Source of the DNA: Pyrinomonadaceae bacterium | GTDB lineage: Bacteria > Acidobacteriota > Blastocatellia > Pyrinomonadales > Pyrinomonadaceae | Reading direction: 5' to 3' | Length of the DNA stretch: 64,000 nucleotides | Assembly (NCBI GenBank): GCA_019694355.1 | Contig: JAIBCB010000005.1 | Coordinates: 42,452-106,451, forward strand | Shown: positions 5,095 to 62,588 of the stretch, piece by piece | Position numbering within the stretch: the first letter of the stretch is position 1 | How the letters are laid out: the number at the start of each line of letters is the position of its first letter | The notes under the pieces: generated by a model | Database searches by the model: none | What the model saw: the letters and a program-made list of their open reading frames with translations, nothing else | What the model was told of the DNA's origin: nothing | Translations under genes and position numbers: made by a program

Positions 5095-5410
5095 ATTCGT
5101 GATTCGTGGCTCCTTTTCCTTTAGTGTTGGAAAGAAGGTTTAGCCACGAATGCACGAATATGAACAGCCGCGAGTTTACGAATAAGAAGGGAGATGCACT
5201 GCCGATGAACCTCCATTCATTCGGTGTGCGTAGAAGAGAATTAATTCGTGAATTCGTGACTCCTTTTCCTTTAGTGTTGGAAAGAAGGTTTAGCGACGAA
5301 TGCGCGAATAAGAACAGCCGCGAGTTTACGAATATGAAGGGAGATGCGCTGCCGATGAACCTCCATTCATTCGGTGTGCGTAGAAAAGAATTAATTCGTG
5401 AATTCGTGGC
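5095..5410. repeat. Tandem 150-bp repeat (2.1 copies) built from alternating inverted 17-mers ATTCGTGAATTCGTGGC / GCCACGAATGCACGAAT
   Basis: TCCTTTTCC recurs at 5111 and 5261, giving a 150-bp period. R motifs lie at 5095-5110, 5244-5260 and 5394-5410. L motifs lie at 5143-5160 and 5293-5310. ORF 5106..5414 is a read-through of this repeat. Confidence 0.9.
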
Positions 5411-8661: not shown

Positions 8662-8913
8662 ATGTCACATAATGTAAAACAGGCGAAGAATAATCTGAGC
8701 ACACTTATAAAACTTGCTGAAAAAGGCCAACCCCAAGTGATACGGCGGCACGACAAGGAGGTCGCGGTCGTTGTATCCATAGAGGACTGGAAAAAAGCAG
8801 GCGGAAAAAGGAAAACACTGCTGGAGATATTTCAAGGAAGCGGCCTGAAAGAGATTTTGCCATATTTGGAAGACCGTCCTGACGATCCGCCGAGAGAGGT
8901 GATCTTTGAATAA
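8662..8913 (+). CDS. Type II antitoxin, Phd/YefM family
   Basis: MSHNVKQAKNNLSTLIKLAEKGQPQVIRRHDKEVAVVVSIEDWKK is the typical Phd/YefM N-terminal pattern. It sits immediately upstream of a PIN toxin gene (TAA ATG junction). Confidence 0.85.
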   Translation: MSHNVKQAKNNLSTLIKLAEKGQPQVIRRHDKEVAVVVSIEDWKKAGGKRKTLLEIFQGSGLKEILPYLEDRPDDPPREVIFE

Positions 8914-9333
8914 ATGAGTTATTTGCTCGACACAAATGTCGTTTCAGAATCTGAACAGGTACGACCGAACCCTGCGGTTCTGAAGTGGCTTGCCGCCCGG
9001 GATGACACGAATATTTATCTAAGTGCTCTGACCGTAGGTGAGATACGTCGAGGGATTGAAATGCTTGAGTCGGGAAAGAAGAAAGCGCATCTTCGTAACT
9101 GGCTTGAATATATTCGGACAACATTTTCGCAACGTATTCTGCCGGTAACCGAATCAACTTTTGAAGTTTGGGGTGTAATGTTCGCGGCATTTGAAAGAAG
9201 GGGAATGAGGCGACCCATTTTCGATTCGCTCCTGGAGGCGACGGCTCTGGAACACGATCTGATCCTTGTTACGCGCAACGTGCGAAATTTTCAAGGTTCG
9301 TCTGTGACGATCCTAAATCCGTGGGAGGATTAA
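8914..9333 (+). CDS. vapC: Type II toxin, PIN-domain ribonuclease VapC (FitB-like)
   Basis: MSYLLDTNVVSE (first PIN acidic residue), ...LSALTVGEIRRGI..., ...LILVTRNVRNF. 139 aa. Confidence 0.9.
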   Translation: MSYLLDTNVVSESEQVRPNPAVLKWLAARDDTNIYLSALTVGEIRRGIEMLESGKKKAHLRNWLEYIRTTFSQRILPVTESTFEVWGVMFAAFERRGMRRPIFDSLLEATALEHDLILVTRNVRNFQGSSVTILNPWED

Positions 9334-9691: not shown

Positions 9692-11293
9692 ATGGCGTTA
9701 CAACTACGCAGAAAAACGCACGAGTCGATCGTGTACATTGATAAGGATTCGGCGCCGCGGATAATGCCGAATGGCGAGGATTTTATCCTTGAGGACATTC
9801 CGGTGGGGACGCGGGTCATTTATCCGAACCCGCCGATCAAAGGTCTGCCCAATCGCGAGGCGGCGATCCGTTACGCGTTGAATCATCCGCTTGAGATGGA
9901 ACCGCTTTACGCGCTGCTCGAACCGGGAATGCGTGTCACTATCGCGATGGATGACATTTCGCTGCCGCTGCCGCCGATGGCATTGCCGGATATGCGGCAG
10001 ACGATGCTCGAGGTCGTCCTCGATCTGTGTGCGGCGAACGGCGTTGATGACATTCATTTGATCATCGCCAACTCACTGCATCGCAAGATGACGGAGTGGG
10101 AAATGAAGCGGATGGTCGGCTCAAAGATCTTCGACGCGTACTATCCCGACCGCTATTACAACCACGACGCAGAGGCCGACGACGACCTCGTAACGCTCGG
10201 GCACACGCGGCATAACGAACCGCTGCGAGTCAATAAGCGCGCGATCGAGAGCGACCTGCTTATCTATCTCAACATCAACCTTGTGCCGATGGATGGCGGC
10301 CACAAATCCGTCGCGGTCGGCTTGTGCGATTACGAAAGTTTGCGCGCTCATCACGAACCGCAGACGATCCGCGATTCGCACTCGTATATGGATCCTCCGG
10401 CCTCTGAACTCAATCACAAGGTCATTCGCCTTGGAAAGCTTGTTGACGAGAACTGCAAGGTCTTTCACGTCGAGACCGCGTTGAACAACAAGATGTTCTC
10501 GGACGGCTATGACATCCTGACGCGAAATGAGGACGAATTCTCATTCATGGATCGGATGAAATGGGAGGCGATGGCGCGTACATTCTCGAAGATGCCGCGT
10601 GGTGCACGAAGAAAGATGCTTCACGCGATCCCTGCGCAGTATGAACTGATCGGCTGCTATGCCGGCCGCACCGAACCGGTCCACGAGAAGATCCTTGAAC
10701 TTAATTACCGACAGTACGAAATTCCCGTAAAAGGGCAGTGCGACATAATGATAACGGGTATTCCGGACATCTCGCCCTACAACGTCTATTCGGCCTTGAA
10801 TCCGCTGCTCGTGCAGGTGATGGCCCTCGGTTATCACTTCAATATGTATCGGAACAAGCCGCTGCTTCGGAAGGGCGGCGTGATGATCATCACGCATCCT
10901 TGTTTTGACGAGTTCGATCCGAAATTCCATCCGTCGTATATCGAATTCTTTCACCGTTTGCTGCCGGAATCGCGTGATGCATTTTATCTGCGTGAGAAAT
11001 ACGAGCGTGAATTCGCCTCGAACCCGGCCTACGTCGAGATGTACCGCCGCGGAAATGCGTATCACGGAGCACATCCTTTCTTTATGTGGTATTGGGGTGA
11101 GAACGGCCGTCAGCACGTCGGGCACGTGATCGTTGCCGGCGCAGAAAATGCACACGTCCCTGAAATGCTCGGCTGGGAACGCGCAGACAACCTGACCGAA
11201 GCCATCGCAATGGCACGCTCATATATGGGACGCAACGCCGAGATCACGATGCTCCATCAACCCATCATCGGCCTGTGCAGCGTGACGGATTAG
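9692..11293 (+). CDS. LarA-like (lactate racemase / DUF2088) domain protein, long form
   Basis: The N-terminal half has DUF2088/LarA-like patterns, including [12 protein letters not shown] in the position of the GG-x-KS cofactor-tethering lysine region. At 533 aa it is longer than canonical LarA as I remember it. Confidence 0.65.
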
Positions 11294-11302
11294 ACATTCG
11301 CA

Positions 11303-12043
11303 ATGGACGATAGAAAGCAGCTTTGGGAAGAGATAGGGACGAGCGAGGCTTATTGGGCGGTTGCGACGCACGATAAGTTTCGTGCGGCGAACTTGAATTC
11401 CGAGCTCAAGGAAGATTTTCTTGAATCCGGCCGCGAGCATATTGACGAGGTTTGGCAGACGTTCCGAGGGCTTTTGGGCCGCGATCTGAGACCCGAACAT
11501 GCGATCGATTATGGCTGCGGTGTCGGTCGGCTGGTGATCCCGCTAGCAAAACACAGCGAACAGGCGATCGGCGTCGATATTTCGTCCGCGATGCTGAAGG
11601 AAGCAGAACAGAACGCGGAAGCGGCCGGTTGTTCGAATATCGAACTCCAGACCGTCGATGAGTTCATTCGTGATGAGGCTGCTGAGTACGACCTCGTACA
11701 CACATATATCGTCCTTCAGCATATTGATCCTGCGATCGGATATTCGGTCATCGAAAGGCTGTTGGAGCGGTTGAAGGTCGGCGGTTATGCGATGATCCAT
11801 ACGACGTTCAAGGACACGTCGCCGTTCTTTGGGCGTATGCGTGCTCGCGTCTATCGCGATGTCCCGGGTGTACATCGGGCATTGAATCGCCTTCGCGGCA
11901 GACACGTGCCATTCGTGCCGGTTTACACTTATGACGCCGAACGCATCAGGCAGATCTTCGCGAAGTACGGTTGCGAGACGCTTTTGGAGAAGGACACGGA
12001 TCACAGCCTTCTGGGCAAGATGTTCTATTTGCGGAAAGGATAA
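11303..12043 (+). CDS. Class I SAM-dependent methyltransferase
   Basis: Motif I IDYGCGVGRLVIPLA, motif II-like region DLVHTYIVLQHI. Confidence 0.8.
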   Translation: MDDRKQLWEEIGTSEAYWAVATHDKFRAANLNSELKEDFLESGREHIDEVWQTFRGLLGRDLRPEHAIDYGCGVGRLVIPLAKHSEQAIGVDISSAMLKEAEQNAEAAGCSNIELQTVDEFIRDEAAEYDLVHTYIVLQHIDPAIGYSVIERLLERLKVGGYAMIHTTFKDTSPFFGRMRARVYRDVPGVHRALNRLRGRHVPFVPVYTYDAERIRQIFAKYGCETLLEKDTDHSLLGKMFYLRKG

Positions 12044-12058
12044 GAGCAGTATCGATCA

Positions 12059-12124
12059 ATGAAGTTATCACCAACCGAAACATTCAAGGGTAAGAAGATA
12101 TTTTTTATCGGCGGCACGGAATAG
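12059..12124 (+). pseudogene. Orphaned original 5' end (20 codons + junction codon + stop) of the ElbD-like gene
   Basis: It encodes MKLSPTETFKGKKIFFIGGT-E-stop. The first 20 codons give the same peptide as codons 1-20 of the CDS starting at 13032. About 60 nt align with 6 differences. Confidence 0.8.
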
Positions 12125-13031
12125 ATGCTCATGCTTAAGATTATCCGGAAGAAGGATGGCTAAGAATAGGACAATATTCGTTAAAGGAACAGGCGTTTCG
12201 ATTTCTAATCGTGGCGAAAATGACTACATTTCATTGACTGACATTGCGAAATATCGAAATACCGTTGAGCCGTTCTCGGTGATCAACAACTGGATGCGAA
12301 CTAAGAGCACGATCGATTTCATCGGTTTGTGGGAAACTTTGAACAATCCGGGCTTCAAACCCATCGAATTCGAGAGGTTTAGAAATGAGGCAGGAAGTAA
12401 CTATTTTGTCCTTTCCCCGCAACGATGGATCGAATCAACGAACGCTGTCGGCATCACTTCAAAATCCGGCCGTTACGGAGGAACTTTTGCGCATAGGGAT
12501 ATCGCATTTGAATTCGCTTCCTGGATCTCTTCAGAATTCAAGCTGTACCTTATAACTGAATTCCAACGGCTAAAGACAGAAGAGAACTATAGGTTGCGCC
12601 TTGAATGGAATCTTCAACGAACACTTGCCAAGATCAATTATCGAATTCATACGGATGCGATCAAAGAGAATCTAATTCCGGCGAAACTTTCTAAGTCTCA
12701 GATCAATCTCGTTTATGCAACCGAAGCCGATCTGTTGAATATGGCGTTGTTCGGTAAAACGGCTAAACAATGGCGGGATGTGAACACCGATCTGGAGGGA
12801 AATATCAGGGATCACGCGTCTATCGAACAATTGGTCGTTTTATCGAATTTGGAAAGTCTGAACGCTGTATTGATTCAGCAGGGGATTCCTCAAAGTGCCC
12901 GCTTGCAACAACTCAACAAGATCGCCATAACTCAGATGACTTCGCTGATGAATAATTCGAACATAAAAGAATTAAAGTAGGCCGTTAGAAAGCAGGCACG
13001 TCTGGATCCGTGTGTCCAAGTTTGGAAAGTA
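12119..13031 (+). mobile_element. ~0.9-kb low-GC cassette carrying only a KilA-N gene, inserted in the 5' end of the ElbD-like gene
   Basis: It is bounded by the diverged ~60-nt direct duplication (12059-12118 / 13032-13092). The interior is visibly AT-richer than its flanks. I saw no recombinase. Confidence 0.55.
12156..12980 (+). CDS. KilA-N domain-containing protein
   Basis: ...DYISLTDIAKYRN...INNWMRTKSTIDFIGLWE...GRYGGTFAHRDIAFEFASWIS.EFKLYLI.EFQRLK...LEWNLQRTLAKINYRIHTDAIKENLIP... matches the ~270-aa KilA-N family proteins known from Bacteroidota and cyanobacteria. Confidence 0.85.
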   Translation: MAKNRTIFVKGTGVSISNRGENDYISLTDIAKYRNTVEPFSVINNWMRTKSTIDFIGLWETLNNPGFKPIEFERFRNEAGSNYFVLSPQRWIESTNAVGITSKSGRYGGTFAHRDIAFEFASWISSEFKLYLITEFQRLKTEENYRLRLEWNLQRTLAKINYRIHTDAIKENLIPAKLSKSQINLVYATEADLLNMALFGKTAKQWRDVNTDLEGNIRDHASIEQLVVLSNLESLNAVLIQQGIPQSARLQQLNKIAITQMTSLMNNSNIKELK

Positions 13032-16000
13032 ATGAAACTATCACCAACAGAAACATTTAAGGGTAAGAAGATATTTTTTATCGGCGGGACCGGCTTTGTG
13101 GGCAAGGTCACGCTTTCGATGCTGCTCAATAATTTTCCCGATATTGGGAAGGTATATGCGACCGTGCGTGCACGCGACGAAAATGAGTCGCGGACGAGAT
13201 TTTGGACCAGCATCGTCACGTCACACACGTTCGATCCCCTGAGGGAAAAGTATGGTGATGGGTTCGAGGATTTTATAAAAGAGAAGGTCGTGCCCGTGAA
13301 CGGCGATGTCGGAAACGAGTTCCTAGGGCTGGATGAAGCGGAAGCCAGAAGGATAATGCAGGACACCGACATCATCATAAATGGAGCGGGAAACGTGACC
13401 TTCAATCCGCCGCTCGAGTCCGCCTTGAGGACGAATGTCGTCGGCTCGAACAATATCATCAAGCTGGCTCGAATGATGAAAAAGCCGCGGCTTGTTCATG
13501 TTTCGACGTGCTTTGTCGCCGGAAAGCGTTCGGGTGCGATCTGGGAGAATGAGCCGGTCGTTGGCTATTTTCCTCGTAAGAATGAACTTGTCGGCACGAC
13601 CTTCGATGTAAATCGCGAGGTCGAAGATTGCGCGCGTCTTAGCGAACAGGCTCGTCAGGAAGCCGACGATGCCGTGCAGGCCGCGAAGTTTCGCGAGCTT
13701 GCCCGGAAGAGGTTCATTGACGAGGGACGCGACCCTGATGACGAATCAGAATTAAAGTCCGCGATATTTCGCGAACGCAAGATGTGGATCCGCGAACGGA
13801 CGACCGAACTCGGTGCCGAACGTGCGGAATATTGGGGCTGGACGAACATCTATACTTATTCCAAATCTCTTGCGGAACAGATCATTGCCCAGCAGGATGA
13901 TATTGTTAAATGCCTCGTCCGGCCGAGCATCGTCGAAAGCTCCGTCGCGTATCCTTTTCCGGGCTGGAACGAAGGTTTTACGACGACCGCCCCGCTTATC
14001 TTGATCGCACTTCGCGGCCAGCCCGTTATTCCGGTCAACGAAAAGCTGATCCTCGATATTATTCCGGTCGATATGGTCGCCGGCGTGATACTGGGTGCGG
14101 CCGTGCGTGCTCTGGTTGACGACAATCCGCCGCTTGTTTTTCAGGCGTCGTCGGGCGATTCGAATCCGAACAATATGAAGCGGATCGTGGGCCTCGTCGG
14201 GCTCTACAAGCGTCAGCATTTTGACGAAAAAGAGACGGGCAACAAGTTCATGAATCGTCTCGCAGGTGCGGTTGAGGCAACGCCGGTAAAACAGAGTGCG
14301 TACGAGTTAACGTCCGCACCGATGCTGAATAAGCTCGCAAAGCGGGCCGACGATATGATGGACCGCGTTACACCGCGTTGGGGCGGCGGCAGGATCGGGA
14401 ACATCGTTGCCGACGTGAAGAAGTCGACCGAGAATTTCAAAGAATCAACGCAGGCGACGATGGATGCCTTTGCGATGTTCAAGCCGTTCATGATCGATAA
14501 TGAATATCTCTATCGGTCGGATAACGTCCGCGAACTCGTCTCGTCGATCAAAGAGAAAGAGAAATCTCTCCTTCCATGGTATCCACAGGATCTTGATTGG
14601 TACGATTATTGGCTGAACATCCATTTTCCCGGAATGCGAAAATGGGTTCTTCCGACCCTTGAAGAAGAGCTCAAAGCGGTCGAAAAGCGGGCATTCACTT
14701 ATCGTGATCTTCTCGATCTTTTCGACACGTCGGTCAAGCGATTTTCGACGCGCGTTGCAATGCGGATCGAGCGCGATGGCCGTAAAGAACAGTACACGTT
14801 CGAGGACGTGAACGAATTGACGCTTCGTGCTGCGGGATTTCTTGCTGGGAAAGGAATTCAGTCCGGCGATCGCGTGATCTTGTTCTCCAACAACATGCCC
14901 GAATGGGGAATGACATATTTCGGCATCCTGAAAGCAGGAGCGACCGCGATCCCGATCGATCCCGCAAGTTCGATGGACGAAGTGATCAATTTTGCCAAAG
15001 CGGGAGAGGCCGCGGCGATCGTGATCTCGCCCAAGCTTCTTGCGGAGAACGAAGAGCTGAGATCAAGGCTTAAAGATGAGTTCGGGAAAACTGCTCCGAG
15101 CGTGTGGAGTTTCGACGAGGTCTTTGAGATCGAGAGCGAGATCGAGGAAGCAAAACGCAATGCCTTGCTTCCCGCCAAGGTGCCGTCGAATACGATAGCG
15201 TCCCTTATCTTTACTTCGGGAACGACCGGGACGCCTAAGGCTGTGATGCTCACGCACAAGAATTTCGTGAACATGGTGTCGATGCTTTCGAGCGTCCTCG
15301 AGATGGACCTGACGGACGGCGTTCTATCGGTGCTGCCGATGCACCATACGTTCGAGTTCTCGGCGGGCTTTCTTACGCCGTTCTCGAACGGAACTCAGAT
15401 CACCTATCTGAACGAACTGACCGCCGAAGATCTAACACGCACGATCGAAAATGGTCACGTGACCGGAATGGTCGGCGTTCCTGCCCTTTGGGAGATGCTC
15501 CATCGCAGGATAAAAACGCGTCTGCGTGATCGCGGTGACTGGGTCGCGGACCTTGCCGACAACATCATCGACTTCAACGCGTGGATCCGCGATAACACAC
15601 CCTTCAATCTTGGCCCAATCATCTTTTTCCCGATACATCAAGGGATGGGCGGCAAGATCCGCTATCTGATCTCCGGCGGCTCGGCGCTCAGCGAGAAGGT
15701 CCAAAAAGATCTGCATGGCCTTGGCTTCACTGTTCTTGAAGGCTACGGCCTGACCGAATCATCGCCGGTTCTTACTGTGACGAGGCCTGGCAATAAGCTC
15801 CTGAAGGGAAGCGTCGGCACGCCGCTTCCGGGTGTCGAAGTGCGGATCGAGGATCCGGACGCGACGGGAGTCGGCGAGATCGTTGCACGCGGCCAAAACG
15901 TCATGGCGGGCTATTACAAGAATGATGCGGCGACCGAGTCGGTTCTGCGAGATCGGTGGTTAAGAACCGGCGATCTCGGCCGCATCGACGAGGATGGCAA

Positions 16001-17462
16001 CCTCTTCATTGTCGGACGTTCGAAGGATGTGATCATCGATTCGAACGGCAAGAACATTTACCCTGACGAGATCGAAGATCTTTACTCGAAACTCCCGAGC
16101 ATAAAAGAAATGAGCGTCGTCGGTCTTCCGGATGCGGATGGCGGCGAAAAGATCGCTAGCCTGGTCGTTCCTGATTATGAGAACGACATTGCCTCGCCTC
16201 GCAGCGAAGTAAACAAGAAGATCGAGGAGCATTTTCGCGAGGTTGCGGCCGGGCTTCCGTTCTTTAAGCGAATAAAAGTGATGCATATCACACCTTTCGA
16301 ACTTCCGCGAACAGCGACGCGAAAGGTAAAGCGGCCGGAAGTGGTCGCCATGCTCGAAAAGCTCGAGGATCGGGCTCGTTCCAAGACGAAGTCGATCGTC
16401 GAATCAAAGGGTGATGACAATGTCGCATGGATCCGTAAGATAGTTGCGACCGTTTCAAACCGGCCGCTCAGCGATGTGTCCGTTGACAGCAAGCTCGCCG
16501 ATCTTGGGTTCGATTCTCTGATGTTCGTCGAGTTGCAGGCGGCGATCGAGGATGCCGGTGGACGAGTTCTGACGCCCGACACGCTGAACGAAGTGCAGAC
16601 GGTGCGAGAACTTCTTACCGTAGTCAACCGTCTCGATAGATCCAAACGTCTGCCGAGCGATGCGAAGGCAGAGGAGACAAAGCCCGACGAAGACGACATC
16701 TACATTCCGTCGCTCGTGCGGCGAGTCGGGAATGCGGTCGTTGATCTTGCTCAGGACGCGCTCTATTCCAAGGTTTTGGACACCACGATCGAAGGGCAGA
16801 ACAACGTGCCTCAGCACGTAAACTTTATCGTTACGCCAAATCATGAGTCGCACATTGATACGGGCCTTGTAAAACGAGCTCTGGGCGCCGACGTCGCGGA
16901 ACAGACGGTTGCCGTCGCGGCGGCAGATTATTGGTTCGATACAAAGTATAAGCGGGCGTATATGAACAACTTCACTACGCTTGTTCCGATCGAACGCAGC
17001 GGCGGCCTTCGCCAGTCTCTAAGGCATGTTACGCGGATCCTAAATGATGGATATAACGCTTTGATCTTCCCCGAAGGTACACGGTCTGTTACGGGCGACA
17101 TTGCCGAGTTCAAACCCGTCATCGGCTACTTGGCGTTGAATCAGAAGGTCGGGATCCTTCCGATCTATATCTGGGGCACCTTCGAAGCCTATCCGAAGGG
17201 GATGACGATTCCGAAGCGTGCAAGCATCGGTGCGAAGATCGGCGCAAAGATCGGTGCGTTCCTTTCTTACGAAGAGTTGCGTGATATGACGGTGGGCGTT
17301 CCGAATGCCGAAGCGTACAGACTGATCGCTGCTCGTGTTCAGCATGACGTGGAAAATATGCGCGATGGCCGGCGAGAAAAGTTCGACGTTTTCGCTGTCC
17401 GAAAACAGTGGAAAGCGGAACGCCGCAGATCGCGAAAGCAGGAGCCGGTTATTGATGAGTAA
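13032..17462 (+). CDS. Four-domain lipid enzyme: fatty acyl reductase (SDR) - acyl-CoA/AMP ligase - ACP - 1-acylglycerol-3-phosphate acyltransferase (ElbD-like)
   Basis: The N-terminus has GGTGFVGK plus YTYSK (a FAR/NAD_binding_4-type reductase). The middle has IFTSGTTGTPKAV, EGYGLTES and TGDLGRIDEDGNLFIVGRSKD (adenylate-forming ligase). LADLGFDSLMFVEL is the phosphopantetheine Ser site. The C-terminus has NHESHIDT (HX4D) and FPEGTRS (PlsC/AGPAT). Confidence 0.85.
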   Translation: MKLSPTETFKGKKIFFIGGTGFVGKVTLSMLLNNFPDIGKVYATVRARDENESRTRFWTSIVTSHTFDPLREKYGDGFEDFIKEKVVPVNGDVGNEFLGLDEAEARRIMQDTDIIINGAGNVTFNPPLESALRTNVVGSNNIIKLARMMKKPRLVHVSTCFVAGKRSGAIWENEPVVGYFPRKNELVGTTFDVNREVEDCARLSEQARQEADDAVQAAKFRELARKRFIDEGRDPDDESELKSAIFRERKMWIRERTTELGAERAEYWGWTNIYTYSKSLAEQIIAQQDDIVKCLVRPSIVESSVAYPFPGWNEGFTTTAPLILIALRGQPVIPVNEKLILDIIPVDMVAGVILGAAVRALVDDNPPLVFQASSGDSNPNNMKRIVGLVGLYKRQHFDEKETGNKFMNRLAGAVEATPVKQSAYELTSAPMLNKLAKRADDMMDRVTPRWGGGRIGNIVADVKKSTENFKESTQATMDAFAMFKPFMIDNEYLYRSDNVRELVSSIKEKEKSLLPWYPQDLDWYDYWLNIHFPGMRKWVLPTLEEELKAVEKRAFTYRDLLDLFDTSVKRFSTRVAMRIERDGRKEQYTFEDVNELTLRAAGFLAGKGIQSGDRVILFSNNMPEWGMTYFGILKAGATAIPIDPASSMDEVINFAKAGEAAAIVISPKLLAENEELRSRLKDEFGKTAPSVWSFDEVFEIESEIEEAKRNALLPAKVPSNTIASLIFTSGTTGTPKAVMLTHKNFVNMVSMLSSVLEMDLTDGVLSVLPMHHTFEFSAGFLTPFSNGTQITYLNELTAEDLTRTIENGHVTGMVGVPALWEMLHRRIKTRLRDRGDWVADLADNIIDFNAWIRDNTPFNLGPIIFFPIHQGMGGKIRYLISGGSALSEKVQKDLHGLGFTVLEGYGLTESSPVLTVTRPGNKLLKGSVGTPLPGVEVRIEDPDATGVGEIVARGQNVMAGYYKNDAATESVLRDRWLRTGDLGRIDEDGNLFIVGRSKDVIIDSNGKNIYPDEIEDLYSKLPSIKEMSVVGLPDADGGEKIASLVVPDYENDIASPRSEVNKKIEEHFREVAAGLPFFKRIKVMHITPFELPRTATRKVKRPEVVAMLEKLEDRARSKTKSIVESKGDDNVAWIRKIVATVSNRPLSDVSVDSKLADLGFDSLMFVELQAAIEDAGGRVLTPDTLNEVQTVRELLTVVNRLDRSKRLPSDAKAEETKPDEDDIYIPSLVRRVGNAVVDLAQDALYSKVLDTTIEGQNNVPQHVNFIVTPNHESHIDTGLVKRALGADVAEQTVAVAAADYWFDTKYKRAYMNNFTTLVPIERSGGLRQSLRHVTRILNDGYNALIFPEGTRSVTGDIAEFKPVIGYLALNQKVGILPIYIWGTFEAYPKGMTIPKRASIGAKIGAKIGAFLSYEELRDMTVGVPNAEAYRLIAARVQHDVENMRDGRREKFDVFAVRKQWKAERRRSRKQEPVIDE

Positions 17463-29121: not shown

Positions 29122-32061
29122 ATGCGACACTTCTCGCTCATTGAAGGCGTAAGGATGCTTTCAAAACCAGGAGCACGGACTCTTACCAGTCTTCTTTTGC
29201 TTATGGCCCTGATCTTGCCGGCCGTTGTTCTAGGCCAGGATCTAAGATCGGCTCCGAGTGATTCCAATCTACCGGATGCAAGCCGGCACGCTCAAAAGCT
29301 CAATGTTAAGGTTGATCCCAATGCGGTCTCTTTTCCGCAGCAGGCAATTGTCTCTGAGCCTTTGGGCGGCAACCCTTGCGAATGGACAGCGGCGGCCGTT
29401 TCGCCGAGCCCGATCCTGGATCAGGCTACGACGGCGATTGGCTCGAATCTTTACACCTTTGCGGGCGTCGGCAGCGGAGCGGTTTTGGCGATCGCTCAGA
29501 AGTTCGATGGAACGGCATGGAGTAGCCTTGCATCCGTACCGGTCGCCCTCGAGTTTCCGTCGGCCGTTTCGGATGGCACGTCTGCATATATCGTCGCCGG
29601 TGTTGACGGAACTGGTACGAGCGTAAACACTCTTTACCGTTACAATCCGGGCACCAACGACTATACGACGCTTGCTCCCGCTCCGACCGCGACATGGAAT
29701 CAGGCGGTCGTGTATCTCAACGGTAAGATCTATAAGATCGGCGGCTACATATCGAGCGGCGGTACCACGAATTCTACGAATGCTCTTGATATCTACGACG
29801 TAACTGCGAACACCTGGTCGAGCGGTGCACCCTATCCGCTTGCTCAGGGTTGGATGTCAGCCTTTACCGATGGCACGTATATTTATGTGGCCGGCGGCGT
29901 TTCGTCCGTATCAGGGTCAGTTCCTTCGACCAAGACCTATCGATACGATCCCGGTACGAACACTTGGGATGATGCGGCGATCGCTGACCTGCCCGTGAGC
30001 CGTTGGGGTTCAGCATCATCGATCATCTCGTATCGCGGCGGCTGGGTGCTCGCCGGCGGCTATGTCGGCGGCACCGCTGCCACAGACCTTTCTGCAGCCA
30101 CGGTCAAATGGGATCCGGTCGCCAATTCCTGGTCGTCCCTGCCTGATATGCTCGCGGCTCGGGCCCGTATGACAGGTGCTGTTATCGGCGATGCCTTTCA
30201 CGTGATCGGCGGACGTTCTTCTGCAGGCGGATTTAACGGCACGAACGACAACCAGCGTTTGTTCTGTATAGACCCGAACCAGCCGTATCTTGTTGGCAGC
30301 GCTGCGTATGTTTCTGATAACGGCACGCCCGCAAATGGCGTTCCGGATCCGGGCGAAACGGTTACCGTTAGCCTTGCGGTCAACAACATTGGCGGCACCG
30401 CGTCCGGAAACGTGTCGGTTACCTTGGCGAACTCGGGCGGGATCACCAATCCGAGCGGCCCGATCAACTACGGCGTGATCGCACCTAATGCTTCGGCAAC
30501 TCAGAATTTCACATTCCAGGTTCCCGGAGACGCAGCGTGCGGAAGCGTGATCACCCTTTCCTTCGACATCGCAGATGGTGCGACGCACTACGCGACGACG
30601 AAGTCCTATAACCTTGGAGTTCTTCAGACGGCGTTCTCCGAGAATTTTGACGGTGTTACGGCGCCGACGCTGCCTTCCGGCTGGGTACAAAACCAGACCT
30701 CGGGCACCGGCATTACTTGGACGACGGTTACGTCCCCGGTAAATTCGGCTCCGAACTCAGCCTTCGCGAACGATCCGGGAGCGGTCAATGCTGCCGCACT
30801 CGAATCACCTGCGTTCAACATCTCGTCTGCGGGTTCGGTCCTTACTTTCAAGAACAACTACAATACCGAGAACACGTACGATGGTGCCGTTCTTGAGATC
30901 AAGATAGGTGCCGGATCGTGGACAGACTTTGTGACCGCTGGCGGATCGTTCAGTGCTGGCGGCTACAACGGAACGATCAGCACCAGCTTTGGAAGTCCGA
31001 TCGGAGGCCGACAGGCTTGGACAGGCAACGCGAACGGTTTCATCACAACGACCGCTACGTTCCCCGCGGCCGCTGTCGGTCAATCCGTACAGCTTCGTTG
31101 GCTGATGGCGTCGGATAGTTCGGTAGCTTCGACCGGTATCAACATCGACGACATCGCGGTCACGAGCGGCTATCTCTGCAACCAGCCCGCCGCCGTGAGG
31201 TCACGTGCTGATTTTGACGGCGACGGCAAATCGGATCTTTCGGTCTTCCGTCCGTCCGAAGGCAATTGGTACCTGGAGCTTACAGGCAACATTCCTTCCG
31301 GCATTTCGAGCCTAAACGTCGTTCATTGGGGAGCTGCGGGCGATTCTCTCGTACCGGGCGACTACGACAACGACGGCAGGACGGACTTTGCGGTCTGGCG
31401 TGCGAACGACACAGAGGGTGCCCCGGATTTCTACATCCTGAACAGCAATGACTTTACCTACAGCGGCATTGCATTCGGCAGGACAGGGGACGTTCCGCTT
31501 GCGGGCGATTATGACGGTGACGGCAAGACCGATGCCGCTATCTTCCGTCCGTCAGAAGGGAACTGGTATCTCTGGAGCTCGCAGGATGGCGGGACGACCG
31601 TTATTCCGTTCGGAAACAGCACAGATATACCGGTTTCGATCGACAACGATGGCGACGGCAAAGCGAATTTGGCCGTGTACCGTCCGTCCGAGGGCAACTG
31701 GTACATCCAGAATGCGACCGGATCCGCCGTCAGTGTCATCCAGTTCGGCACAATGGGCGACCTCCTCGTGCCGGCAGACTATGACGGTGACGATAAGGAC
31801 GACGTGGCTGTCTTCCGTCCGTCCAATGGAACATGGTACATCCTGAATTCCACGGACAGCAGCGTTAGCTACATTCCGTTCGGAACTTCGGGAGATGTCC
31901 CGGTCCCGGCCGACTATGATGGCGACGGAAAGGACGATATCGCTGTCTATCGCGGCGGTACATGGTATACCCTGTTCTCGAACGGCGGCAGCGGAGTGGC
32001 CAACTTCGGCCTTGCGTCCGATCAGCCTATTCCAACCGGATACCTTCCGGCTCAGAATTAG
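29122..32061 (+). CDS. Large secreted protein: six Kelch-like blades, CARDB-like and lectin/LamG-like regions, six FG-GAP/VCBS repeats
   Basis: Kelch-like h-x-h-GG strands occur at ~50-aa spacing (LYTFAGVG, AYIVAGVDG, IYKIGGY, IYVAGGV, WVLAGGY, FHVIGGRS). The C-terminus has D[FY]DGDGK.D.AV[FY]RPS.G.WY six times. The start is ATG 29122 (GGAGGG upstream) or 29155. The 28951 start is unlikely. Confidence 0.8.
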   Translation: MRHFSLIEGVRMLSKPGARTLTSLLLLMALILPAVVLGQDLRSAPSDSNLPDASRHAQKLNVKVDPNAVSFPQQAIVSEPLGGNPCEWTAAAVSPSPILDQATTAIGSNLYTFAGVGSGAVLAIAQKFDGTAWSSLASVPVALEFPSAVSDGTSAYIVAGVDGTGTSVNTLYRYNPGTNDYTTLAPAPTATWNQAVVYLNGKIYKIGGYISSGGTTNSTNALDIYDVTANTWSSGAPYPLAQGWMSAFTDGTYIYVAGGVSSVSGSVPSTKTYRYDPGTNTWDDAAIADLPVSRWGSASSIISYRGGWVLAGGYVGGTAATDLSAATVKWDPVANSWSSLPDMLAARARMTGAVIGDAFHVIGGRSSAGGFNGTNDNQRLFCIDPNQPYLVGSAAYVSDNGTPANGVPDPGETVTVSLAVNNIGGTASGNVSVTLANSGGITNPSGPINYGVIAPNASATQNFTFQVPGDAACGSVITLSFDIADGATHYATTKSYNLGVLQTAFSENFDGVTAPTLPSGWVQNQTSGTGITWTTVTSPVNSAPNSAFANDPGAVNAAALESPAFNISSAGSVLTFKNNYNTENTYDGAVLEIKIGAGSWTDFVTAGGSFSAGGYNGTISTSFGSPIGGRQAWTGNANGFITTTATFPAAAVGQSVQLRWLMASDSSVASTGINIDDIAVTSGYLCNQPAAVRSRADFDGDGKSDLSVFRPSEGNWYLELTGNIPSGISSLNVVHWGAAGDSLVPGDYDNDGRTDFAVWRANDTEGAPDFYILNSNDFTYSGIAFGRTGDVPLAGDYDGDGKTDAAIFRPSEGNWYLWSSQDGGTTVIPFGNSTDIPVSIDNDGDGKANLAVYRPSEGNWYIQNATGSAVSVIQFGTMGDLLVPADYDGDDKDDVAVFRPSNGTWYILNSTDSSVSYIPFGTSGDVPVPADYDGDGKDDIAVYRGGTWYTLFSNGGSGVANFGLASDQPIPTGYLPAQN

Positions 32062-32081
32062 GGTCGATCGGTAAAAACCTT

Positions 32082-32127
32082 AGCTGTTCGGAGCGTGCAA
32101 AGGCGTTCCGAACAGCTTTTTTCTTTT
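32082..32127 (+). terminator. Rho-independent terminator
   Basis: AGCTGTTCGGA (32082-32092) / TCCGAACAGCT (32107-32117) form an 11-bp stem, followed by TTTTTTCTTTT. Confidence 0.75.
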
Positions 32128-32187
32128 GATGCTTCGCGGCTATGCTGCCAATTTGTTTGCCTATTCGGAATGAAAAATGTGCATGCG

Positions 32188-32271
32188 CTTTGATACATTT
32201 TGTGCGGTTTGATACGTTTTGTGCGGAATGTGTCGATTTGTGCGGTTTGATACGTTTTGTGCGGTTTGTGC
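32188..32271. repeat. Four and a half direct 19-bp repeats (TTTGATACGTTTTGTGCGG), iteron-like
   Basis: Units at 32188-32207, 32208-32226, 32227-32245 (diverged) and 32246-32264, plus a partial unit at 32265-32271. The period is not a multiple of 3. Confidence 0.8.
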
Positions 32272-32407
32272 TTCAAACGTGCGCGTCGGTTCGCTATGAT
32301 GACAACACGGTCGAACCGGCCGCTTGGTCTTTGAAAAACTTAGTTCGTGGTTCGTTGTAAATTGCTCATTGTTCTTTGGTCATCGGTCATTGATCTTTGG
32401 TCTTTGC

Positions 32408-32580
32408 GGCTTGCCGCAGCGCAGTGCGGTCGGGCTTGCCCGACCGTCACACGACTTAGGAATATATCGGAGCGTGCGGAGCACGCGACAGAGCGTTTGT
32501 CGGCGGCAAGCCGCCTCCGGGAGTCTGAGGTGGCAATTGACGGTCGGGCAAGCCCGACCGCACTGCCAAGGGGCAAGCCC
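32408..32580. repeat. ~170-bp element with 26-nt terminal inverted repeats (copy A)
   Basis: GCAGTGCGGTCGGGCTTGCCCGACCG (32421-32446) is the exact reverse complement of CGGTCGGGCAAGCCCGACCGCACTGC (32541-32566). There is a central palindrome TGTCGGCGGCAAGCCGCCTCC. Confidence 0.8.
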
Positions 32581-32794
32581 GTGAGGCAAGTGGCCTTCGT
32601 CCTTCGCGTTCTTTGCGTCTCCTTTGCGTTCTTTGCGTTTACGATCTTGTTTGGAAACGCAAAGGCCGCCAAGCTAAATCCACAAAGATCGCGGAGATAC
32701 AGGATTCTGAATCCCAGATTTGAAATTTGAAATGTGAGATTCAAGATTTCAGGCCCTCGCTTGATCAGGGCTGTATTTCAAGTTTTGAAATATG

Positions 32795-32811
32795 ATTCGT
32801 GAATTCGTGGC
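32795..32811. repeat. Solo ATTCGTGAATTCGTGGC motif (same 17-mer as at 5394-5410)
   Basis: It is an exact 17-mer. I saw no partner L motif nearby. Confidence 0.7.
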
Positions 32812-32853
32812 TGCTTTCTTCCGTTGCAAACTTTGTTGCTCGATCGTTTTTGT

Positions 32854-33070
32854 GGCTTGCCGCATTGCAGTGCGGTCGGGGTTCGTGGGTCATAGATCCC
32901 CACGTGTTGCAAAAAACGCCACCGTGCCCGACCGTCACTCGGATTACGAATATTTCGGAGCGTGCGAAGCACGCGACAGAGCGTTTGTCGGCGGCAGGCC
33001 GCCTCCAGAAGGGTCGGTGTACGCTCATCGGTCGGGCAAGCCCTACCGCACTGCCAAGGGGCAAGCCCGG
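32854..33070. repeat. Copy B of the TIR element, with a 46-bp insertion in the left-arm hairpin loop
   Basis: It is collinear with copy A, except that GGTCGGG[46 nt, 32881-32926]CCCGACC interrupts the left arm. The right arm is CGGTCGGGCAAGCCCTACCGCACTGCCAAGGGGCAAGCCCGG. Confidence 0.75.
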
Positions 33071-33254
33071 AAGATGGTCTAGGTCTTGTCGGCGGCGAGC
33101 CGCCTCGAAGAGAACTGAAAGCGGAGAATTGAGAATGGAATATGTGGTTGGAAATTTTTTTGCGAAATTCTGGGACAAATCGCGTAAGTGACTGAGAACA
33201 CAGCACTTATGTGTCCCAGAGGCTGTCCCACGAGCGTCTTGGCTGGGACAAAAG

Positions 33255-33390
33255 ACGGCCATTGGCGGCGGCAAGCCGCCTCCAGGAGTCTGATCTGGCT
33301 AGGGACGGTCGGGCAAGCCAGACCGCACTGCGAAAGGGCATAGCTCGGAAGATGTTCTCAGTCTTGTCGGCGGCAAGCCGCCTCCGAGGT
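33255..33390. repeat. Copy C: right half of the TIR element plus the GTCTTGTCGGCGGCAAGCCGCCTCC tail
   Basis: It starts at the central GGCGGCAAGCCGCCTCC palindrome and runs through CGGTCGGGCAAGCCAGACCGCACTGC. The tail motif also follows copy B (33083-33107). Confidence 0.65.
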
Positions 33391-33466
33391 TGGTTTTGGG
33401 GCACGGTTCCACGGCATAAATGCCGTGGCAATTCGGCGGCGGAGCCCTTACTAACGTGAATACTGC

Positions 33467-33882
33467 CCGCCCGCTGACACAGGCGGTTCTGACAAGACCA
33501 CCCGCTACCGCAGGTGGTACTGACAGGGCCTGGCCGCCCGCGACGTGGGCTTGGGATCTGGCTAACACCGAACGCCCTTACGAACGTGCGGGCTTCGGCA
33601 ACCGAAATACAACAGGCAATTGGCGGGCAAGAGGATCAATTACAGCTGTCAGCTATGAGCTATCAGCTATCAGCGAACACGATGTTTGAAAACCTTACGG
33701 TTGCGGGCTTTTGCAATGCTGACCGCCCGCTGACGCAGGCGGTTCTGACAATACCACCCGCTACCGCAGGTGGTACTGACTGCCCACTGCTGACGGCTCA
33801 CTGGCGACCACCCGCTACCGCAGGTGGTACTGACTGCCCACTGCTGACGGCTCACTGGCGACCGCCCGCTCACGCAGAGGTG
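33467..33882. repeat. Cluster of 27-nt hairpin units (CCRCC-CGCTRMCRCA-GGYGG-TWCTGAC), including a 2 x 54-bp tandem
   Basis: Units at 33467-33493, 33498-33524, 33723-33749, 33754-33780 and 33808-33834, with a degenerate one at 33862-33882. Segments 33754-33807 and 33808-33861 are identical 54-bp repeats. Confidence 0.8.
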
Positions 33883-33893
33883 TCGGCGTTCCG

Positions 33894-54670: not shown

Positions 54671-55837
54671 CTAAAACCGAACTCTGGTAATTGTTCCCGG
54701 AAAGATATTCGTTACGAAGATGTCGCCCGTACGATCATCCCGAGCCATACTTGACGGCGTGATCAATGTCGGGACAACAACGCTCGCGTTTCCGTCACGG
54801 TCGAACCGTCGGAGCCGTCCGGGAGCATTCGCAAGGAAATTCGTGCTGAACTCAAGTACGTAGTAACCGTCGCGGCCGAAACGCTGGTTGACAGGCATTA
54901 TGTCCATCGTGGATGCAAGTCCAGAGAGGATCGTCTCATGTTCTCCGGTCCATAGGTTGACGGCCTGAACATCAGATTGCCCATTGATCATTGGGAATCC
55001 GGTCAACTCAGGCACAAGGAGTTTCCTGCCGACGAAATGAACGTTATCGGGCACGGCCTCGATGAATGGGCCGCCGATCGTGCCAAAGAGCGGATTTGGC
55101 CTATTGGGAAACTCCACGAATGTGGACAATTCGCCTGTGAAGAGATTGACCTTATGAAGCTCGTTATAGGAGGCGTCGGCAACAAAAAGGTTCCATCCTA
55201 CCTGTTCAACAGCGAAAGGGTGTGACGTGCGGATCGCATTCGGGGCGTTTGGCTGCGGTTCCGGGCGATAGTCGGGAATGTCGGCTACGAGAAATACGAA
55301 GATCGAGTCGCCATCGGCGTTTCGGATCCGGACCCAGTGACCGGCGGCGATATCCTCCTGATCCTTTAAGGTCATCTCGAATTCGCTGTTAAGCGACTCA
55401 AAATTCCTCGGAAGGATGACTCCGAGCACCGAACAGAAAAGCGGCGATGACGGAGATCCTGTAGGGTACTGGGAGCCTCCGATCATTGTCGCAGCGTCGC
55501 CGACCCCGGATGTCACCCAAAGGACGCGCCCGTTCAGGTCAATGCCTGTTGTCCCGTCAGACTCTGGCGGGCCGCCGAGATTGCTAACGCCCGAAGGCAG
55601 TCCGCTGATAAGCGTGTGTCGAACACCGGTCGTTCGGTCGATGACCGAAATACGCCCGGTGTTCGCGTCCATCGTTCCATTTTCAGAGACGAGGAACGTA
55701 TTTCGCGGGCCGGGAATGATCTTCGTTGGAAGATTCAGCCCAGCGGTTACGACCTGCGTTGTCTGTGCGGGAAGGCTTCCTGTCAGGCCGACAAAAAGGA
55801 AGACCAGGGTTGCAAGTATGCTTGCTGCTTTTTTCAT
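54671..55837 (-). CDS. Secreted beta-propeller-like protein, paralog 1 (possibly ScyD/ScyE-like)
   Basis: Signal peptide MKKAASILATLVFLFVGLTGSLPAQ. It aligns with 61227..62399 over its full length at about three-quarters identity by eye. ATG 55837 is preceded by GGAGAG. Confidence 0.7.
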   Translation of the reverse strand: MKKAASILATLVFLFVGLTGSLPAQTTQVVTAGLNLPTKIIPGPRNTFLVSENGTMDANTGRISVIDRTTGVRHTLISGLPSGVSNLGGPPESDGTTGIDLNGRVLWVTSGVGDAATMIGGSQYPTGSPSSPLFCSVLGVILPRNFESLNSEFEMTLKDQEDIAAGHWVRIRNADGDSIFVFLVADIPDYRPEPQPNAPNAIRTSHPFAVEQVGWNLFVADASYNELHKVNLFTGELSTFVEFPNRPNPLFGTIGGPFIEAVPDNVHFVGRKLLVPELTGFPMINGQSDVQAVNLWTGEHETILSGLASTMDIMPVNQRFGRDGYYVLEFSTNFLANAPGRLRRFDRDGNASVVVPTLITPSSMARDDRTGDIFVTNIFPGTITRVRF

Positions 55838-56109
55838 AGTACTCTCCATTTGCGCTGAGGTTAGTAGCTTTGCTTCGCGAAACCCCGTACCGATACTCCA
55901 AACACGTACCTTTTTGGCCTATTGCGGCAAAAAGTCGGCCGGATGTACAATGAAACAGCCCGGTCAAGGATCAAGTGGACTCGCTGGTCAAGGACGGCGC
56001 TGTTTAGCCGGTTTGGGCGTTCACGTGACTGTAATCTATCTCGGCCGCCTCACTTTAATCCTTCATTCTGGGTGAAATTTTCCTGACTTTTGTCTGGCGC
56101 TGGGCTCAA

Positions 56110-62399: not shown

Positions 62400-62588
62400 A
62401 GCAGCTCCTTTTTCAAAATTCGGATCGGGAGGCGATATTCGTTGCGACGAATTTAGGGTGGGTGTAAAATGGATGTCCGGTATCCCACCCAGATCTTTTA
62501 CGAACATTTTCGAGGATGGTAGATGAGCAAGGTCGGCCTTGTCTTTCAAGATTCTTGAAACTTTTCTGATTTTTGTCTGAATGTGTCG

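Follow-up and report, generated by a model that had tools for sequence, protein, structure and literature searches.

At Rhs loci (Jackson et al. 2009, PMC2935791) and in the type VI secretion system (T6SS) of Vibrio (Kirchberger et al. 2017, PMC5361080), incoming DNA brings new cargo along with part of a conserved gene and recombines through that part. The resident end of the gene is displaced and persists as a silent fragment, such fragments of variable length form arrays when events are repeated, and no element-encoded recombinase is evident. A circle that integrates by a single crossover was put forward for the displacement of Rhs C-termini (PMC2935791), and one-ended illegitimate recombination for the displacement of T6SS effector-immunity genes (PMC5361080). 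The locus analyzed here is part of a 64-kb stretch of contig JAIBCB010000005.1 from a Pyrinomonadaceae bacterium (the window; all coordinates refer to it, position 1 being its first letter). There, a cassette with a KilA-N gene is situated between two copies of the start of an ElbD-like lipid gene, the first copy a dead stub and the second the live gene start. To judge from its sequence, the locus appears to work like Rhs and T6SS end displacement without being a member of the polymorphic-toxin systems. In those systems the 3′ end, a variable toxin domain, is displaced and the protein changes, whereas here the ElbD 5′ end (the start and about 20 codons) or, in relatives, the last about 20 codons of a gene for a LarA homologue are displaced and the protein stays unchanged. 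In addition, the cargo here is an unrelated stand-alone gene, and the displaced part is the conserved start or end of a housekeeping-type enzyme gene and not a toxin tip with cognate immunity.

Four further systems share features with the locus. The minimal mobile elements of Neisseria and the defence hotspots between core genes (Oliveira et al. 2017, PMC5635113; Johnson et al. 2023, PMC10250203) also have two conserved flanks and lineage-specific cargo that is rich in defence and toxin-antitoxin genes, with few or no mobility genes, and exchange is ascribed to host homologous recombination. Many hotspots of acquired genes, including those for anti-phage defence, lie between core genes without an integrase or transposase, and the usual explanation is a double crossover in the flanks, which is scarless (PMC5635113, PMC10250203). 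In contrast, duplicated gene ends have remained as scars at the present locus, and they point to single-crossover or one-ended events in the first or last about 60 nucleotides (nt) of the flanking genes. In E. coli, single crossovers of circular plasmids gave partial lacZ duplications of 109–950 bp, and 56 of 60 screened recombinants were such duplications, far above the one-ended illegitimate events (PMC3240628). This Campbell-type integration resembles the present case in the partial duplication of a homologous segment around the inserted DNA; it was achieved with a laboratory plasmid and longer homology, whereas the present case is natural and its homologous "handle" would be about 60 bp long. 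Integron cassettes are likewise small, co-oriented and without an evident promoter of their own, and they are added at one spot by a conserved gene, with older entries pushed along; here, unlike there, it is part of the adjacent gene that is repeated. Prophages and islands that target gene ends (e14 in icd; tRNA-targeting islands) duplicate the gene end, and the live copy is partly element-derived, with the protein kept and the differences synonymous. Their attL and attR junctions are reciprocal chimeras, and the protein is preserved, as appears to be the case here. However, these elements encode an integrase and use one fixed core, whereas no integrase was found within 8 kb of the present cassette, the junctions vary, and the cargo is a single gene of 274 codons.

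Each of the two copies of the gene start, 12059–12118 and 13032–13091, encodes the first 20 residues of the ElbD-like protein, MKLSPTETFKGKKIFFIGGT. The six nucleotide differences that distinguish the copies are all synonymous (AAG/AAA, TTA/CTA, ACC/ACA, TTC/TTT, GGC/GGG, ACG/ACC). The full repeat comprises 62 nt (12058–12119 versus 13031–13092), being extended by the A in front of each start codon and by the G with which codon 21 begins. The first copy begins 15 nt past the stop codon of a methyltransferase gene and terminates with GAA TAG, and the second opens an open reading frame (ORF) of 1476 amino acids. All genes are on the plus strand in the order LarA-family isomerase homologue (LarA homologue), methyltransferase, stub, KilA-N and ElbD-like gene, with gaps of 9, 15 and 51 nt. 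The KilA-N ORF is the sole substantial one between the copies; the others have 46–63 codons and overlap it, except for an antisense ORF with a TTG start (12932–13462, 176 codons) that clips the last 49 nt of KilA-N and extends into the ElbD start. The GC content is 0.41–0.45 over 12000–13050 versus 0.54–0.56 in both flanks. The two copies, their six synonymous differences and the AT-richer DNA with KilA-N between them had been part of the original prediction and were confirmed by reading and recomputation.

The same arrangement was present in 20 of 20 independent contigs from several studies, 19 of which were 100% identical over 2.7 kb; by their database names they belong to the Pyrinomonadaceae (Acidobacteriota). 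An assembly artefact is thereby ruled out. The possibility that the start copies belong to a dispersed repeat was also excluded, as the pair turned out to be unique in the window (self-BLAST E 9e-19; family D1 of the repeat scan). The only single nucleotide polymorphism among the 20 population contigs (12087 A>T) lies within the stub and is non-synonymous, and the stub thus seems to drift freely now. The ORF of 21 codons that can be called at 12059 should be annotated as a fossil start and not as a gene.

A free drift of the stub is not what the six differences reflect. About 23–27% of random changes in the 20 codons would be synonymous. The probability that six of six are synonymous is 2-4e-4 if every change fell in a neutral stub, and 0.003–0.006 if the live copy also took synonymous changes. 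When independent ElbD stub/live pairs of relatives were pooled, 46 synonymous and 14 non-synonymous differences were counted (p = 1e-7 under the most generous null). These values are in line with the original prediction that the repeat is not a target-site duplication. As the stub now drifts freely, the synonymous differences should predate the junction, and the sequences indicate that the two copies must have diverged as working gene starts in different lineages before the junction formed. The pooled excess argues that a donor version of the gene end on the incoming DNA is the rule at this spot.

A protein search with ElbD led to P0121 (99% identical), which is encoded on a contig with the gene order LarA homologue, methyltransferase and ElbD, but without KilA-N (L195; loci of relatives are labelled L and their proteins P). 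An empty site, which the original prediction had suggested looking for, thus exists, and other occupants were also found in relatives (see below). The ElbD gene of L195 is 95.9% identical to that of the window over 4430 nt, and the DNA of the LarA homologue and the methyltransferase is 92.8% identical. At nt 6, 7, 18, 27, 57 and 60 of the gene start, L195 has G T C T G C, the stub G T C C C G and the live copy A C A T G C. In nt 1–26 the stub agrees fully with L195, and it departs from it just at 27, 57 and 60. The live copy mismatches L195 only at 6, 7 and 18, and then not again until nt 108, so that it is identical from nt 19 to 107. More distant empty sites (the L199 clade, L011 and L012) also have G6, T7, T27, G57 and C60, and among all empty sites compared (L195 and these three) C18 is common to the stub and L195 only. 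The stub together with the 15-nt spacer upstream of it is colinear with the methyltransferase-ElbD junction of the empty sites L011 and L015.

Because the stub matches L195 in nt 1–26 and the live copy in nt 19–107, the two copies appear to be reciprocal chimeras, the signature of one crossover within nt 19–26. The sorted left/right pattern is one of 20 orderings of three plus three sites, and its direction is the one that a single crossover predicts. Under decay, the probability that all three stub-specific differences would be synonymous, as they are, is about 0.016 (synonymous fraction about 0.25). The original prediction had assumed that the cassette brought a replacement 5′ end. This seems to hold for the left part of the incoming copy, which is found in the live start; however, the comparison with L195 indicates that part of the live copy is native and part of the stub foreign. 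Exact-protein look-ups with KilA-N, the methyltransferase and ElbD, made for an empty site in the same species, gave occupied sites only.

The KilA-N gene also seems to travel together with an ElbD start. The KilA-N 3′ end, the following spacer and a start with the sequence ATG AAA CTA TCA CCA ACA GAA A are colinear in the window, L083 and L023 (alignment A2). In L083 this cassette-linked ATG AAA CTA start has itself become a stub (stub 2), and the first 32 nt of the live copy of the window are identical with it. The view that the incoming DNA brought its own gene start was therefore upheld by the co-travelling parts in the window, stub 2 of L083 and L023. In L185, a stub of 21 ElbD codons is fused in frame with KilA-N, resulting in a protein of 310 amino acids (P0004); this stub does not differ from the live copy over 56 nt. 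Fragments of KilA-N lie beside stubs or live starts in L023 and L048. The nucleotide identity of KilA-N with the gene of the window is 83% in L083, 77% in L023 and 76% in L012, where the gene is situated elsewhere in the interval between the LarA homologue and ElbD. In the lineage of L012 (L181–L184), a Phd-like antitoxin gene with a partner of 79 codons is followed in this interval by KilA-N, another methyltransferase gene (49% identical) and a fragment resembling RhuM, gene types that type I restriction-modification loci typically contain as well.

The interval was compared in 80 species-level Pyrinomonadaceae loci that had been fetched via the ElbD N-terminus. ElbD is 87–97% identical over its first 500 residues in the 80 species, and the LarA homologue is 90–99% identical (full-length matches) in the loci that reach that gene. 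The distance from the stop codon of the LarA homologue to the ElbD start varies from 0 to 4559 nt (median 1326; 59 loci holding both genes), and the upstream DNA is unrelated between lineages right to the ElbD ATG. Orthologues of the methyltransferase (82–87% identical) directly precede ElbD in L011, L013 and L015. Conserved flanks (87–99% amino acid identity) with varied cargo between them make the interval a hotspot; most occupants have no mobility gene, but L060 carries a transposase and REP-like hairpins are common (see below).

One or more extra ElbD 5′ fragments are present in 12 of the 80 loci. Their homology to the gene ends at codons ~11, 15, 21, 22, 22–23, 33 and ~25–36, the inserts have a size of 0.14–1.2 kb, and no common end motif was seen. 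The inserts at the ElbD start contain a MNT/HepT toxin-antitoxin pair in L048, a gene of the DUF1016/YhcG nuclease family in L068, an IS200-like Y1 transposase of the RAYT (REP-associated tyrosine transposase) type in L060, a tetratricopeptide repeat (TPR) protein fused to the stub in L090, and in further relatives KilA-N or hairpin elements of about 120–140 nt that resemble repetitive extragenic palindromes (REPs). A silent fragment that newer cargo separates from the intact gene, with arrays after repeated events, is expected of end displacement; the window has one stub and relatives have arrays, up to four successive ElbD starts in L083/L186. In six loci the mirror image was found at the other border, namely a complete LarA homologue, a cassette and then a fragment of the last 14–24 codons of the LarA homologue. 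The cassettes beside these 3′ stubs carry a Phd-like antitoxin gene with a putative toxin ORF downstream, an ORF6N-like gene or a gene for a membrane protein.

Some details of the relatives were recorded in addition. The REP-like hairpin GCGGACnnnnnnGTCCGC, followed by GTTCCGT, abuts the ElbD start codon in many relatives and is common among them (L013, L016, L018, L019, L033, L036, L041, L045, L051, L055, L059, L065, L067, L086 and L195 are included), and oppositely oriented copies bound inserts of 120–140 nt after some stubs. In L186 (6159–6210), the live ElbD start contains a duplication of 7 nt (AAGGGTA) that shifts the frame, which reflects either a sequencing error or a recently inactivated gene.

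The best reading of these results, with a probability of roughly 0.6, is that the ElbD end was displaced by a single crossover, which host recombination made via a start copy of about 60 nt borne by the cassette. The cassette would comprise about 973 nt, i.e. a leader of 36 nt, the KilA-N gene, a spacer of 51 nt and the ElbD start copy, the handle. At the six variable positions the native start would have read G T C T G C and the incoming handle A C A C C G. In an ancestor of the species, the handle and the resident start would have undergone a single reciprocal exchange whose crossover fell in nt 19–26. This exchange would have joined, in a Campbell-like manner, the left part of the resident start to the right part of the handle, yielding the dead stub of 20 codons that was shifted upstream and ends with GAA TAG, and the left part of the handle to the resident gene, yielding the live start with an unchanged protein. 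Host homologous recombination on an identity patch of 60 bp would be enough, and an element-encoded recombinase would not be needed. In agreement with the original prediction, no integrase, resolvase or transposase was found within about 8 kb on either side (precomputed Pfam annotations; the rest of the window was not scanned gene by gene). The route by which the cassette moves, for which the original prediction had considered an uncharacterised one, would most simply be ordinary recombination via the 60-nt handle, and it seems to recur with many cassettes.

Further features would follow from such a process. It would recur at both borders of the interval, which would thereby become a hotspot without an integrase where small genes of the defence and toxin-antitoxin types accumulate, and displaced gene ends would build up in arrays as events are repeated. 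If the stub recombined with the live start, the cassette would be cleanly deleted and a circle with one handle released. The predicted empty junction would consist of the methyltransferase, the spacer and a start going from ATGAAGTTA... directly to ...GGGACCGGCTTTGTG, and the predicted circle junction of the KilA-N 3′ end, the spacer, one handle of 60 nt, the GAATAG leader and the KilA-N 5′ end. The first capture of a handle would have to be an illegitimate event, which would fit the spread of the junctions and their loose clustering in the G-rich GGCGGGACGGGG patch. The two copies, their chimera pattern relative to the closest empty site, the co-travelling parts of the cassette and the recurrence in relatives are shown by the sequences; that the donor was circular or had two ends in some other way, that the exchange depended on RecA and how the DNA entered are inferred.

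Several points weigh against a single crossover via the handle. First, L195 might be an excision product, generated by recombination of stub and live start within nt 19–26; in that event, the whole stub could be native and the whole live start foreign. By a rough estimate, the odds against this origin of L195 are only about tenfold, as about three neutral changes of the stub would be expected since the split and no non-synonymous change was seen (P about 0.1). Second, both copies share a haplotype at nt 28–56 that is rare in the family (GGT..ATA TTT TTT). Therefore, either the handle would have come from a close relative or the middle of the repeat would have been subject to later gene conversion. 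Third, the reciprocal pattern was not reproduced at other stub loci, where the nearest empty relatives are 6–20% divergent and uninformative. Fourth, four or five of about ten junctions lie at codons 21–23 (P about 0.007, before correction for the choice of the window), which hints at a site preference that plain homologous recombination does not predict. Finally, a non-replicating circle would have no obvious way between cells, and the organism is not known to be naturally competent.

The clustering of junctions in the GGCGGGACGGGG stretch at codons 21–23 is also one of the observations that would suit a site-specific integration, in which the 60-nt segment is an att site that mimics a gene start, the recombinase acts in trans or was lost, and the cassette is the stump of a larger element or a mobilised mini-element. 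Gene-end-restoring integration is well established for integrative elements, e.g. for prophage e14 in icd, and reciprocal chimeras resulting from one crossover have the appearance of attL and attR; they equally fit a homologous single crossover and do not discriminate between the two. However, no recombinase gene is annotated in the 8 kb on either side, and the window has no tRNA gene. The junctions of the relatives extend from about codon 11 to 36 without a fixed position, the inserts have neither a uniform size nor a visible end motif, the payloads are mutually unrelated, and mirror-image stubs exist at the 3′ end of the LarA homologue. Site-specific integration was thus regarded as unlikely, although it ranks slightly ahead of the other alternatives. 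An integrative element of the integrase type is disfavoured, since no recombinase gene is annotated within these 8 kb and a fixed junction is missing.

The variable junctions would also fit a one-ended, homology-facilitated illegitimate recombination, as put forward for the analogous displacement in T6SS loci. A linear donor would have been anchored inside ElbD and its far end joined at codon 21, so that the stub would be wholly native and the live start wholly of donor origin. Illegitimate joints reportedly favour GC-rich patches near the border of homology (Prudhomme et al. 2002), and the cluster in the G-rich stretch would fit this preference. For the cassette of the window, however, the native start would have to have acquired three private synonymous changes (27, 57 and 60), and the donor allele would have to be identical to L195 over nt 19–107, including the rare GGT/ATA/TTT haplotype. 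Simple replacement by a linear molecule also needs a homologous crossover downstream of nt 62, a region in which no tract of donor origin can be seen. In E. coli, single-crossover duplications were obtained instead (56/60; PMC3240628). A one-ended event is therefore a doubtful explanation for the window and stands second among the alternatives; it may well apply to the founding events of some other stubs.

The rare haplotype shared by both copies would be explained if the start had been duplicated in situ, as a long target duplication, and if the copies had diverged afterwards, with the stub kept by gene conversion or by selection as a leader or initiation region of KilA-N. The identity of the L185 copies over 56 nt fits, as does the fact that KilA-N uses or abuts the resident start region in L185, L116 and L138. 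The synonymous sites of the first codons are also unusually conserved; the diversity at third positions of ElbD is 0.17 in codons 1–10 and about 0.5 after codon 40 (79 sequences), so that the 5′ sites are either constrained or homogenised by repeated exchange of starts. Yet six of six synonymous differences (P 0.003–0.006 under neutral drift of the stub) and the pooled 46:14 ratio speak against such an origin, and so does the non-synonymous nature of the sole population polymorphism in the stub. The ordered match with L195 (left part with the stub, right part with the live copy) would not be expected, and the AAA CTA start that is linked to the cassette is common to several lineages. A duplication in situ was therefore considered improbable. 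The least probable alternative is a homing-type mobility, in which KilA-N or a partner would cut the GGTGFVG-coding DNA, the cassette would be copied in on repair and synonymous changes would protect the occupied site: the junctions do cluster in DNA for a Rossmann GxxGxxG motif, a typical kind of homing target, and the KilA-N fold has reportedly been likened to DNA-binding modules of LAGLIDADG enzymes (Iyer et al. 2002), but KilA-N is the only domain detected, the profile search found no relative with a solved structure, the predicted C-terminal half is all helical (at low confidence, see below), homing does not duplicate its target, and the other payloads at the spot (toxin-antitoxin pair, DUF1016, TPR protein) are unrelated.

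Further candidates were rejected or disfavoured. A transposon or insertion sequence with a target-site duplication does not agree with a repeat of 60–62 nt that is 10% divergent, no inverted repeat bounds 12119–13031, and no transposase is annotated within about 8 kb. No imperfect palindrome that would bound an integron cassette was found in the repeat scan (no dedicated attC model was run), and no IntI-type integrase is annotated within about 8 kb. A free-standing homing endonuclease is disfavoured, as no nuclease domain was recognised in the Pfam and profile searches. A diversity-generating retroelement was excluded, since the changes between the copies (G>A, T>C, C>A, C>T, C>G and G>C) show no adenine specificity and no gene for a reverse transcriptase lies nearby. 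REPs or miniature inverted-repeat transposable elements do not account for the window, from which the hairpin GCGGACnnnnnnGTCCGC is absent.

Table 1. Features of the interval between the LarA homologue and the ElbD-like gene (positions in the window)
Feature	Position	Strand	Basis or remark
LarA-homologue gene, left border of the variable interval	9692..11293	+	Pfam Lar_N; NCBIfam LarAH14/15/16, 806 bits versus cutoff 740
S-adenosylmethionine (SAM)-dependent methyltransferase gene, resident cargo of the interval	11303..12043	+	Pfam Methyltransf_23/25/12
Native methyltransferase-ElbD spacer	12044..12058	+	colinear with the spacer of empty site L011, ...GAGCAGTAT(C/T)GATCA ATGAAGTTATCA
Displaced ElbD start (stub), 20 codons, then GAA TAG	12059..12124	+	nt 1–26 (12059–12084) native-like
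Stub nt 27–60	12085..12118	+	three stub-specific synonymous variants C27, C57, G60; read as handle-derived
Cassette leader, 36 nt, from the end of homology to the KilA-N ATG	12120..12155	+	equal length in L083/L186, similar by eye
KilA-N gene, payload; PADLOC candidate PDC-S22	12156..12980	+	Pfam PF04383, E 1.4e-20
Cassette spacer before the live start	12981..13031	+	colinear with the KilA-N-to-start spacers of L083 and L023
Live ElbD start	13032..13091	+	nt 1–18 (13032–13049) with cassette-linked alleles A6, C7, A18; native-like from nt 19
ElbD-like multidomain lipid gene, right border of the interval	13032..17462	+	Pfam NAD_binding_4, Sterile, AMP-binding, PP-binding, Acyltransferase

The features of the interval are summarized in Table 1. 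The 1476-codon gene has reductase, AMP-ligase, carrier-protein and acyltransferase domains, and judged by these Pfam domains "ElbD-like" is a fair label. Simple scans, which were crude and based on the sigma-70 consensus, revealed no promoter-like or terminator-like site on the plus strand of 12044–13031. No Rfam element was detected in 11000–14000 at E <= 1, and the predicted RNA fold of the cassette spacer was no better than that of shuffled sequences (z = 0.6). The original proposal that the cassette is the source of the promoter of the lipid gene is thus unsupported; co-transcription of the ElbD-like gene by read-through from the upstream genes is equally plausible.

The KilA-N protein matches Pfam PF04383 with residues 16–141 (73.5 bits, cutoff 23.8), and this is its sole Pfam match; a nuclease domain (LAGLIDADG, GIY-YIG, HNH or PD-(D/E)xK) was not found on it. 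The match to the PADLOC profile PDC-S22 is full-length (E 7.5e-135, residues 1–273 on profile positions 1–273 of 281), and PHROG 2657 is also matched. The gene would thus be a candidate anti-phage gene, PDC systems being candidates by genomic association only; a full-text literature search for PDC-S22 yielded a single paper, on the genomics of Streptococcus suis, with three mentions of it. A search with the family profile yielded no relative in the PDB, and an AlphaFold model (alignment of 14 sequences) had a mean predicted local distance difference test (pLDDT) score of 55, with a C-terminal half that is all helical at low confidence. Within the gene, a palindrome of 24 nt (AAACCCATCGAATTCGAGAGGTTT, 12357..12380, inverted repeat I14) codes for the conserved FKPIEFERF, and its RNA is predicted to fold well (z = -3.0). 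This palindrome is included in the KilA-N remnants of both L023 (4781–4831, beside the stub) and L048 (5930–5976).

At least 8000 homologue candidates were found at E <= 1e-5. The best 120 of them are 73–100% identical to the KilA-N protein and have named sources in several phyla, and Bacteroidales, Melioribacteraceae, Pirellula and Chthoniobacterales are among the sources listed. Homologues also occur on satellite prophages and plasmids; one adjoins a Qat defence system, and two adjoin recombinase genes with Tn3-family transposases close by. Flanking direct repeats of at least 30 nt were present at 5 of 69 metagenomic homologues versus 2 of 75 control ORFs, a difference that is not significant (Fisher p = 0.19). 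Three of the five (L135, L116 and L138) are of the same kind as the window, and only these resemble it. In L135, a stub of about 290 nt from the 5′ end of the downstream hsdM gene lies in front of an unrelated KilA-N gene; about 15 synonymous and 3–4 non-synonymous differences were counted by eye in its first 160 nt. In L116, 42 nt are duplicated that comprise the hsdM 3′ end and the first 8 nt of the next gene, and KilA-N borrows the first two codons of that gene. In L138, a leader of 62 nt is duplicated up to ATGA. A further homologue (L187, 5001–5828; 84% identical) is situated between two paralogous genes with Ser/Thr-kinase and Tricorn domains, ends 2 nt before the next start and is not flanked by a repeat.

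A tentative generalization, which we consider possible but do not favour, is that small defence-type and toxin-antitoxin genes (KilA-N/PDC-S22, ORF6N, DUF1016, MNT-HepT and Phd-PIN) could be mobile cassettes without a recombinase. They would carry a handle of about 40–100 nt from the end of a host gene, often the start codon with the translation-initiation region, would loop out by recombination of one handle with another and would re-insert by one host crossover. The hsdM stub in front of an unrelated KilA-N gene in L135 might be a second example. If this is true, such a cassette restores the host gene and borrows its expression signals, and it would be a general route by which integrase-free defence hotspots are filled across phyla. 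The locus between the LarA homologue and ElbD keeps traces of the exchange in the form of displaced ends whose differences from the live copies are almost all synonymous. Because of these synonymous-biased stubs and the reciprocal chimera relative to the empty site, the incoming DNA appears to have brought a short piece of a core gene and to have recombined within it.

The signature can be searched for in other genomes as a stub, a cargo and a live end with near-zero non-synonymous differences, and a handle of 60 bp with a single crossover offers a testable mechanism for the spread of small defence and toxin-antitoxin genes without machinery of their own. The kind of process is already known from polymorphic-toxin loci and from single crossovers in the laboratory. 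What would be new is that it operates on the start of an ordinary enzyme gene and that its cargo is a candidate defence gene standing by itself; end displacement of the Rhs and T6SS type is thereby extended to the 5′ ends of such enzyme genes.

The left side of the LarA homologue is also occupied by selfish cargo. According to the annotation of identical contigs, a PhdYeFM antitoxin and PIN toxin pair is situated directly upstream of it (about 8662–9333). Farther upstream, a unit of 150 nt is repeated 2.1 times with 95% identity at 5095–5408, where it overlaps a called ORF of 84 codons just upstream of a PDDEXK_3 gene. A region of about 1.8 kb (32060–33900) has no ORF of at least 150 codons except one of 169 codons with a TTG start on the minus strand (32765–33274). 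It is dense in direct and inverted repeats, among them a 19-nt unit repeated 4.5 times (32184–32268) and a 54-nt unit repeated 2.3 times (33753–33877). Two segments 6.5 kb apart (54671–55768 and 61227–62324) are 71% identical over 1.1 kb and are probably paralogous genes, and a second pair of similar segments was found at 56073–56414 and 62556–62893.

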